A stretch of DNA of 64,000 nucleotides from Escherichia coli (GTDB taxonomy: Bacteria; Pseudomonadota; Gammaproteobacteria; Enterobacterales; Enterobacteriaceae): NCBI RefSeq assembly GCF_003334385.1, contig NZ_QOWN01000013.1, one strand, 5' to 3'. Every line of letters starts with the position of its first letter. Within the stretch, counting starts at the first letter, position 1. The notes below the pieces were generated by a model. It was not told where the DNA came from. It saw only the letters and a program-made list of their open reading frames with translations, and did no database searches. This document shows, in pieces, positions 63,542 to 63,901 of the stretch. The translations under genes were made by a program, and so were the position numbers.

Positions 63542-63901
63542 ATGTTTTTTTCAGCGCCCTTTGATCTGATCGCTGAAAAAACAACAAATAGTATAAAAAT
63601 GAACAATCCGAATCCATGCATGACGTGTGGTGCCTGTTGTGCATTTTTCCGCGTATCCTTTTACTGGGCTGAAGCAGATGATGCTGACGGCACCATCCCC
63701 GTAACGATGACAGAACAAATCTCTCCATACCATCGATGCATGCCGGGCACTAACCAGAAAAATCCTCGCTGTGTCGCCCTGAAGGGTGAACCTGGAGTCA
63801 ATGCCTGCTGCAGCATCTATGAACATCGCTCATCCACCTGCAGAGAATTTCAGATGTCCGGAGAAAACGGCATCGTGAATGAAGCGTGCAACCGCGCATG
63901 A
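63542..63901 (+). CDS. YkgJ/UPF0153-family putative Fe-S or zinc-binding protein
   Basis: ORF contains [17 protein letters not shown]...[27 protein letters not shown] (CxxCxxCC plus distal Cys cluster); start uncertain (ATG 63542 or 63599); resembles K-12 YkgJ from memory but not verified. Confidence 0.6.

Follow-up and report, generated by a model that had tools for sequence, protein, structure and literature searches.

A ykgJ-like gene at the junction of a lambda-like prophage with potB in Escherichia coli

The potB junction and the prophage beyond it

The window analysed here is a stretch of 64,000 nucleotides of Escherichia coli DNA (contig NZ_QOWN01000013.1). In its last 2.5 kb, pepT (minus strand), potA, potB and an open reading frame (ORF) of the YkgJ type follow one another in this order. 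The ORF had been listed at 63542..63901 on the plus strand, with a product of 119 aa. According to the comparison with K-12, the homology of potB ends at 63414/63415. Past the common ...AAGAAGG, the K-12 sequence runs as TGGAACTCGAATGATCGG into potC, whereas the window continues with CAACCGAAATAGATGATTAG. The first-pass annotation had spoken of a transplanted segment, and the break in potB homology confirms that the segment is real. The 3' end of potB is a replacement supplied by the prophage (63415..63434, plus strand). According to the homology break and the ORF translation, it encodes ATEIDD* in place of the VELE* of K-12. The chimeric PotB is annotated by PGAP.

The region past the end of the window was viewed in NZ_CM129862.1, a RefSeq chromosome that is 100% identical to positions 63380-64000. 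After the junction, this chromosome carries the YkgJ-family gene, an S6-family (SPATE) peptidase gene, a gene for a hypothetical protein and one for a YadA-like protein. Further on, tail-fibre, gpJ, tail, head, terminase, lysis and replication genes, a repressor region, exo, xis and int are found, and then potC and potD. The att core TGAATAAGAAGG (12 bp, 63403..63414) forms the crossover region within the potB codons for L-N-K-K. A second copy flanks the prophage on the potC side (5505-5516 of the potC-side locus, L005), and K-12 has a single uninterrupted copy. A tyrosine integrase and an excisionase, which go with a lambda-type attR, are both encoded, and xis and int lie immediately upstream of the L005 core copy. 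Because TGAATAAGAAGG stands at both ends and the genes between follow a phage order, the foreign segment is a lambda-like prophage of ~54.7 kb integrated in potB. Its tail-fibre-side junction (attR) is the one that lies in the window. In O157:H7, prophage integration at this locus has been published under the name PP_potB (PMC9997748).

The potABCD operon is split by the prophage (window 61451-63434; L005 5527-7364). The potA-potB' part remains on the promoter side, and potC-potD lies ~54.7 kb off, behind int. In the lysogen, PotB ends in ATEIDD instead of VELE, and the ATGA overlap of potB and potC is gone. The uptake of spermidine and putrescine by lysogens may be affected by the split.

Just past window position 64000 (8975-15082 of the locus L001), extra cargo separates the tail-fibre assembly gene from the ykgJ copy. 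It consists of a 1,335-aa S6-family (SPATE) autotransporter peptidase, a 156-aa hypothetical protein and an adhesin with a YadA C-terminal domain. Sister prophages in potB are without this SPATE/YadA block.

The phage arm of attR and its hairpin

The 5' flank of the ykgJ copy (63415..63598) is the phage-derived arm of attR. By position it is equivalent to the P arm of lambda, with int and xis at the opposite end of the prophage. Of 5,426 complete E. coli genomes, 684 contain the 184-bp arm, and in almost all instances it directly adjoins potB. Two short motifs are located in its distal part. The first, TTTTGGAGA (63533..63541, plus strand), lies 119-127 bp from the core. It is the sole match to TTTTGGRGA in the 64 kb window and is invariant in five relatives. 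On the int side, three tandem matches to TTTTGGRGA are located 47-80 bp from the core (L005 5425-5457), and three or more matches were obtained in none of the 200 shuffles. By analogy with lambda, TTTTGGRGA is probably the arm site of the integrase, and TTTTGGAGA is a candidate for such a site on the attR arm. The second motif, AATCAAATAGTTA (63512..63524, plus strand), is one of the eight exact matches to the IHF consensus (WATCAANNNNTTR) that the 64 kb window contains. It lies between the arm-type motif and the hairpin described below, and its ATCAA...TT core is kept in the five relatives. Its position suggests a putative IHF role.

A motif repeated on both arms and an IHF consensus are thus found at the sequence level, and 63415-63598 appears to have the anatomy of a lambda-type att arm, in which the sites are assigned by position. 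As in lambda attP and attR, the core is duplicated at both ends, xis and int adjoin the att site, arm-type repeats are present as a tandem triplet on the int side and singly ~120 bp out on the other arm, and an IHF consensus stands beside the single arm repeat. The distance of TTTTGGAGA from the core is similar to that of lambda P1. Unlike in lambda, the target lies inside potB, and the core and arm sequences differ.

Copies of the att-arm module (from CAAC...) are not confined to potB and are present as well in prophage remnants linked to serT and dusA (L009 2354-2700 and L011 2357-2700). In these remnants the module is joined to a remnant of a tail-fibre-assembly gene at ...CTGAAGAAGG, which resembles the potB core CTGAATAAGAAGG. 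This arrangement may reflect the integration of a potB-type phage at a secondary site within another prophage.

A perfect hairpin or palindrome is located at 63467..63500 (plus strand), with arms at 63467-63480 and 63487-63500 that are 100% complementary. This inverted repeat had been described with an 8-nt spacer. It is real and perfect as described, and its arms are slightly longer (14 bp), with a loop of 6 nt. The folding energy of the RNA is -21.8 kcal/mol, against -7.2 +/- 2.2 kcal/mol for shuffled sequences (z=-6.5), and none of the 200 shuffles was as stable. In four to five sequence variants from related prophages, the stem is stable as well (-16.5 to -21.8 kcal/mol, z -4.2 to -6.1). 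Among these few distinct variants, no true compensatory pair was found, only single mismatches or one-sided changes. Because the changes are not compensatory pairs, the conservation of the structure is suggestive, short of proof.

The hairpin had been proposed as a possible boundary of the foreign segment. It does not delimit the segment but sits inside it, in the attR arm of the phage and 53-86 bp from the core, with the IHF site on its far side. A terminator had also been suggested as a possibility. A rho-independent terminator here would end potAB transcription and insulate the prophage. Its stem is strong and conserved, and its place in the lysogen, 33 nt past the stop codon of the chimeric potB and before the next gene, would suit this function. 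However, no T-run follows the hairpin on either strand, and it is not called by a terminator scan. Since a U-tract is lacking, the hairpin is not a canonical rho-independent terminator. In addition, the element is a component of the phage att arm and is found off potB too, in the serT- and dusA-linked remnants. The insulating terminator is thus an improbable explanation.

In the circular phage, the hairpin would stand ~208 nt downstream of the int stop codon, on the int strand. Because of its positions after int and after potB, the likeliest role of the hairpin would be that of a stable RNA stem-loop 3' of the int or potAB' transcripts, or of a protein-binding palindrome of the att arm. The RNA 3' stem-loop, possibly similar to sib/tI, is put forward tentatively and at somewhat less than an even chance. 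The protein-binding palindrome may be considered possible though rather doubtful, and the same degree of belief applies to a hairpin with no function. A search of Rfam gave chance-level matches only (E 0.25-0.86, far below the gathering scores). Compared from the sequence alone, the sib element of lambda lies outside P1, whereas the hairpin here lies between the core and the IHF site.

The ykgJ copy, its start and its premature stop

The start of the gene had been left unclear, as GGAG stands only 1 nt before the ATG at 63542 and no Shine-Dalgarno sequence precedes the ATG at 63599. Both observations hold. PGAP places the start of the CDS at 63599. This ATG is also the exact point at which the DNA becomes homologous to K-12 ykgJ, and the regions upstream are unrelated. 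In five relatives, no change is seen in ATG 63599 or its A-rich leader, whereas ATG 63542 is replaced by ACG in four of the five and is out of frame in the fifth, because a T-run there is one base shorter. From the PGAP call, the onset of the K-12 homology and the invariance in the relatives, ATG 63599 is the predicted translation start, 57 bases later than proposed. The 63542 start appears to be an accident of the sub-lineage of the window. The segment 63542..63598 (plus strand), whose ATG is not conserved and which has no homology to the region upstream of K-12 ykgJ, is an in-frame upstream extension that is noncoding and probably 5' UTR.

The GGAG had been taken for a possible ribosome-binding site. 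It is the centre of TTTTGGAGA, a member of the TTTTGGRGA family that stands as three tandem copies beside int at the other end of the prophage, and a spacing of 1 nt from GGAG to ATG is too short for a Shine-Dalgarno sequence. A scan of 63300-64000 for promoters detected no sigma-70-like site. The leader also contains a second perfect inverted repeat, TTTTTTCAGCG-N14-CGCTGAAAAAA (63546-63556 / 63571-63581, plus strand), with arms of 11 bp. This repeat is found only in the sub-lineage of the window and is absent from the EDL933-type relatives.

The ORF as drawn could in principle encode an intact functional protein of 119 aa with an N-terminal extension of 19 residues. The frame is open from 63542, and gene callers gave extended products in close relatives (P0004, 128 aa; P0006, 143 aa). 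Within the sub-lineage of at least 95% identity, both ATG 63542 and the frame are kept. Against such a product, K-12 YkgJ and all enterobacterial orthologues begin at the position of 63599, and ATG 63542 is lost or out of frame in the relatives. Moreover, the extension overlaps the conserved TTTTGGAGA motif, the GGAG is placed too close to the ATG, and the 3' end is a premature stop. We regard the 119-aa protein as very improbable. The limits of 63542..63901 are thus to be revised at both ends: the conserved start is 63599, and the ancestral frame runs beyond the premature stop to 63931.

The CDS as it stands (63599..63901, plus strand; WP_071780837.1) consists of 100 codons and a premature TGA, and RefSeq names the product a YkgJ family cysteine cluster protein. 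The expected membership of the YkgJ family is borne out by a Pfam-A search, in which PF03692 (CxxCxxCC) was detected as a single domain at residues 25-117 of the listed ORF, over model positions 1-85 of 85 (E=4.4e-11, score 43.7). It is also borne out by an amino-acid identity of 83% to K-12 YkgJ. The PCMTCGACC motif and the distal cysteine cluster, both pointed out earlier, are present in the translation. The N-terminal motif reads C7-M-T-C10-G-A-C13-C14, at positions that are invariant or at least 90% conserved in 133 family members. C58, C71, C81 and C97 follow, and the distal cysteines of the ORF occur in the contexts HRC, PRC, ACC, STC and EAC. An intact member of the family has eight near-invariant cysteines (C7, C10, C13, C14, C58, C71, C81 and C97). 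The family is large: clustering at 50% identity leaves 1,386 representatives. NCBIfam and PADLOC gave no match to the protein, and among the PHROG families only phrog_32498 was hit (E=0.092).

K-12 YkgJ (b0288, UPF0153; 109 aa) is of the same length class and has all the conserved cysteines, and its homology to the window covers exactly the CDS. However, K-12 ykgJ is located at the ecp locus, whereas the window copy is borne by a prophage beside potB, is cut at codon 101 and has an unrelated upstream region. Between the two genes, pN is 0.105 and pS is 0.69 (pN/pS ~0.15, JC-corrected omega 0.06). Past about codon 25 the synonymous sites are saturated (pS ~0.8), so the window copy is an old, separate allele. 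Intact alleles of potB prophages give pN/pS values of 0.06-0.29, with one pair at 0.06. From these low ratios, the lineage has been under purifying selection, the prophage copies included. The intact YkgJ proteins of potB prophages (e.g. WP_074015512.1 of SCU-106) share the position, the att arm and the PGAP start with the window copy. They differ in that they have 109 aa, are intact and are followed directly by tail-fibre assembly genes, with no SPATE/YadA cargo.

The gene ycgN (UPF0260; 32973..33434, minus strand) had been named as a relative in the same window. Its coordinates, given there with no strand, and its motif CDGCGQCC are as described. It matches PF03692 (E=4e-11), but nothing is detectable in common with the window YkgJ beyond the 8-residue motif (BLASTP E=0.23). 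YcgN belongs to the same Pfam family and to a different subfamily, and it is a core chromosomal gene.

FliB, a flagellin lysine methyltransferase, binds a [4Fe-4S] cluster via a related N-terminal cysteine motif (PMC8598068), and the phage preQ1 methyltransferase DpdM (DUF3109) has been described as a YkgJ homologue (PMC10516641). According to this literature, both have a cysteine cluster of the CxxCxxCC type; they are much larger enzymes than the YkgJ proteins of ~110 aa and have additional regions. By analogy with FliB, the eight cysteines would most likely hold an Fe-S cluster, or zinc. The PDB contains nothing similar by sequence, or by fold when the AF2 model is compared with the solved structures, and the mechanism thus rests on analogy. 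A biofilm and filamentation phenotype has been described for YkgJ (PMC8743551).

At 63899..63901 (plus strand) a premature TGA takes the place of Arg101, where the homologues read ...ACNRARAKYGLPPL or ...NEACNRARAKYGLPPL. The window reads ...NEACNRA-TGA and then, in frame, AKYGLNPLQ-TAA. The former 3' end of the gene (AKYGLNPLQ*, 63902..63931, plus strand) still matches the C-terminus of the family in translation, and the homology to K-12 ykgJ continues past the stop to about 63915. Codon 101 therefore carries a nonsense mutation of a near-invariant Arg (CGA/AGR to TGA). The conserved C-terminus R101...L106 (ACNRARxxYGLPPL) is absent from the product, the motif being encoded downstream and left untranslated. 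Ten residues are lost, among them R101 and L106, two positions with a conservation of at least 90% in a diverse set of 133 family members. An AF2 model of the restored 110-aa protein, based on the alignment of 133 sequences, reaches a pLDDT of 93.5; in this model, the position of the stop falls in the last helix (95-103). A first model from 29 close homologues (pLDDT 50.5) was unusable.

Two independent assemblies (H1 and 2013C-3033) agree at 100% identity over the region of the stop, which excludes a sequencing error. At 99% identity or more, the window allele occurs in at most three of the 5,426 genomes. The stop is recent. Because ten residues, two of them near-invariant, are lost and the final predicted helix is truncated, the product in this strain is probably impaired or en route to a pseudogene.

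The gene may then be a non-functional passenger, inactivated by the nonsense mutation and decaying like the ykgJ stubs of other lambdoid prophages, and we give this possibility almost an even chance. Half of the last helix is gone together with the two near-invariant residues, and the allele is confined to very few genomes. Remnants of the gene are frequent in sister prophages: it carries a frameshift in 09A19CPO009, and only 9 codons are left in the EDL933 type and ~30 codons in Stx1a_10012. Variants with Cys changed to Tyr also exist (P0038). The degradation of ykgJ in many related prophages argues that the phages need the gene only weakly. On the other hand, all eight conserved cysteines are kept, no frameshift or other lesion is found apart from the TGA, and the intact prophage alleles are under purifying selection. 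The truncated protein, with its cysteines intact, could still be active.

In EDL933-type O157:H7 potB prophages, the first 9 codons of ykgJ are followed by the type III effector gene espK (L008 2686-4245). This class of arm (80-90% identity) comprises about 586 records.

Taken together, the ORF is with good confidence a phage-carried second copy (xenologue) of ykgJ. At its tail-fibre/attR end, the ~54.7 kb lambda-like prophage in potB finishes with this gene, which starts at 63599, 185 bp from the att core TGAATAAGAAGG, and is cut at codon 101. The gene is already annotated, and copies of this kind ordinarily stand where it does, at the att-proximal cargo end of lambdoid prophages. Little is at stake in the gene itself: it belongs to a widespread family, is annotated and has recently acquired a nonsense mutation. 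What is useful here is the set of corrections: the start is moved to 63599, the stop is premature, and the supposed Shine-Dalgarno sequence and the hairpin belong to the prophage att arm and are no expression signals of the ORF.

The mosaic 5' end and the chromosomal ykgJ

The window and the other potB-prophage copies are 99% identical over 63380-63654 (3 mismatches in 275 nt). From about 63655-63687 on, the identity falls to 55-75% (pS ~0.8). Among the window, K-12 and SCU-106 alleles, the synonymous divergence is 0.07-0.21 in codons 1-25 and 0.6-0.9 elsewhere. For the window and K-12, codons 1-35 differ from codons 36-108 (Fisher's test, p=0.0017). Against the Salmonella and Raoultella orthologues, the synonymous sites are saturated (0.63-0.83) even in codons 1-25. 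Thus the short 5' island was recently shared by recombination and does not reflect a constraint intrinsic to the gene. The island of low divergence (63599-63700) is seen only among the chromosomal and prophage ykgJ alleles of E. coli (L002 and L017-L019; cf. L023 and L026).

At the ends of other prophages, the breakpoints within ykgJ cluster between +27 and +114: they are found at +27 in the EDL933 type (with espK next), ~+85 in Stx1a_10012, +39 and +91 in PPompW, and +114 in VT1-Sakai. This scatter argues for homologous or illegitimate exchange within a short shared segment, and against one precise site-specific crossover.

The ends of lambdoid prophages carry fragments of the ykgJ region, and other lambda-like phages integrate there (Nakamura et al. 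2021, PMC8112680). The ykgJ-derived DNA might thus matter as a secondary phage attachment site (attB-in-PP_2) and not as a gene. The published homology of 309 bp and 84% was reproduced in VT1-Sakai and in an Stx2 phage, where it extends over -193..+114 relative to the ykgJ ATG. However, the 96-bp attB-in-PP_2 maps to -164..-69 of the K-12 ykgJ ATG, in the ykgJ/ecpE intergenic region, and the PPompW homology also starts at -164. No match to the -164..-69 segment was found in 63300-64000. As the window shares only +1..+317 with K-12 ykgJ and is unrelated upstream, attB-in-PP_2 is absent here. The attachment-site explanation is hardly credible for this locus. An assignment of attB-in-PP_2 to the 5' coding part of ykgJ (~63606-63701), made from 94-bp BLAST matches in Stx-phage records, was refuted by the direct mapping.

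The chromosomal ykgJ of E. coli is followed by an opposite-strand 39-aa remnant of a tail-fibre-assembly gene (L020 2447-2566; L002 about 2610-2850). This convergent layout of ykgJ and tfa/DUF4376 is common to the chromosomal locus and the prophage ends. Judged from the gene arrangement, the layout suggests that the ecp-linked ykgJ locus is a fossil prophage end. Prophages splitting the chromosomal ykgJ were not found in a spread sample of 5,279 records.

As a speculative view that we hold at well below even chance, the first ~30-110 nt of ykgJ would be the joint where lambdoid prophages swap their att-proximal cargo, such as various ykgJ alleles, the effector loci espK or nleC and the SPATE/YadA island, and the chromosomal ykgJ would be a fossil prophage end that replaced the ompW-linked orthologue. 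Separately, the same view takes the hairpin as a sib-like RNA downstream of int that caps the truncated potAB after integration. The shuffling of att-proximal cargo around a short conserved piece of ykgJ is of moderate interest for STEC and for the mosaicism of lambdoid prophages. The mosaic, recombinant pattern at the 5' end of ykgJ is the sole part that might repay further work.

Capture of ykgJ by an ompW-integrating phage was also considered; this idea is weak, since mapping placed the 121-bp ompW att at the far (3') end of the gene. In Salmonella and Raoultella, an orthologue of 134-137 aa is located between ompW and yciC (L023/L026 5001-5414; L027 4600-5100). At the same place, K-12 has a deletion of ~460 bp, and the remnant consists of the last ~30 codons (tblastn E=4e-14). 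Therefore, E. coli has lost the ancestral copy and keeps the phage-type one.
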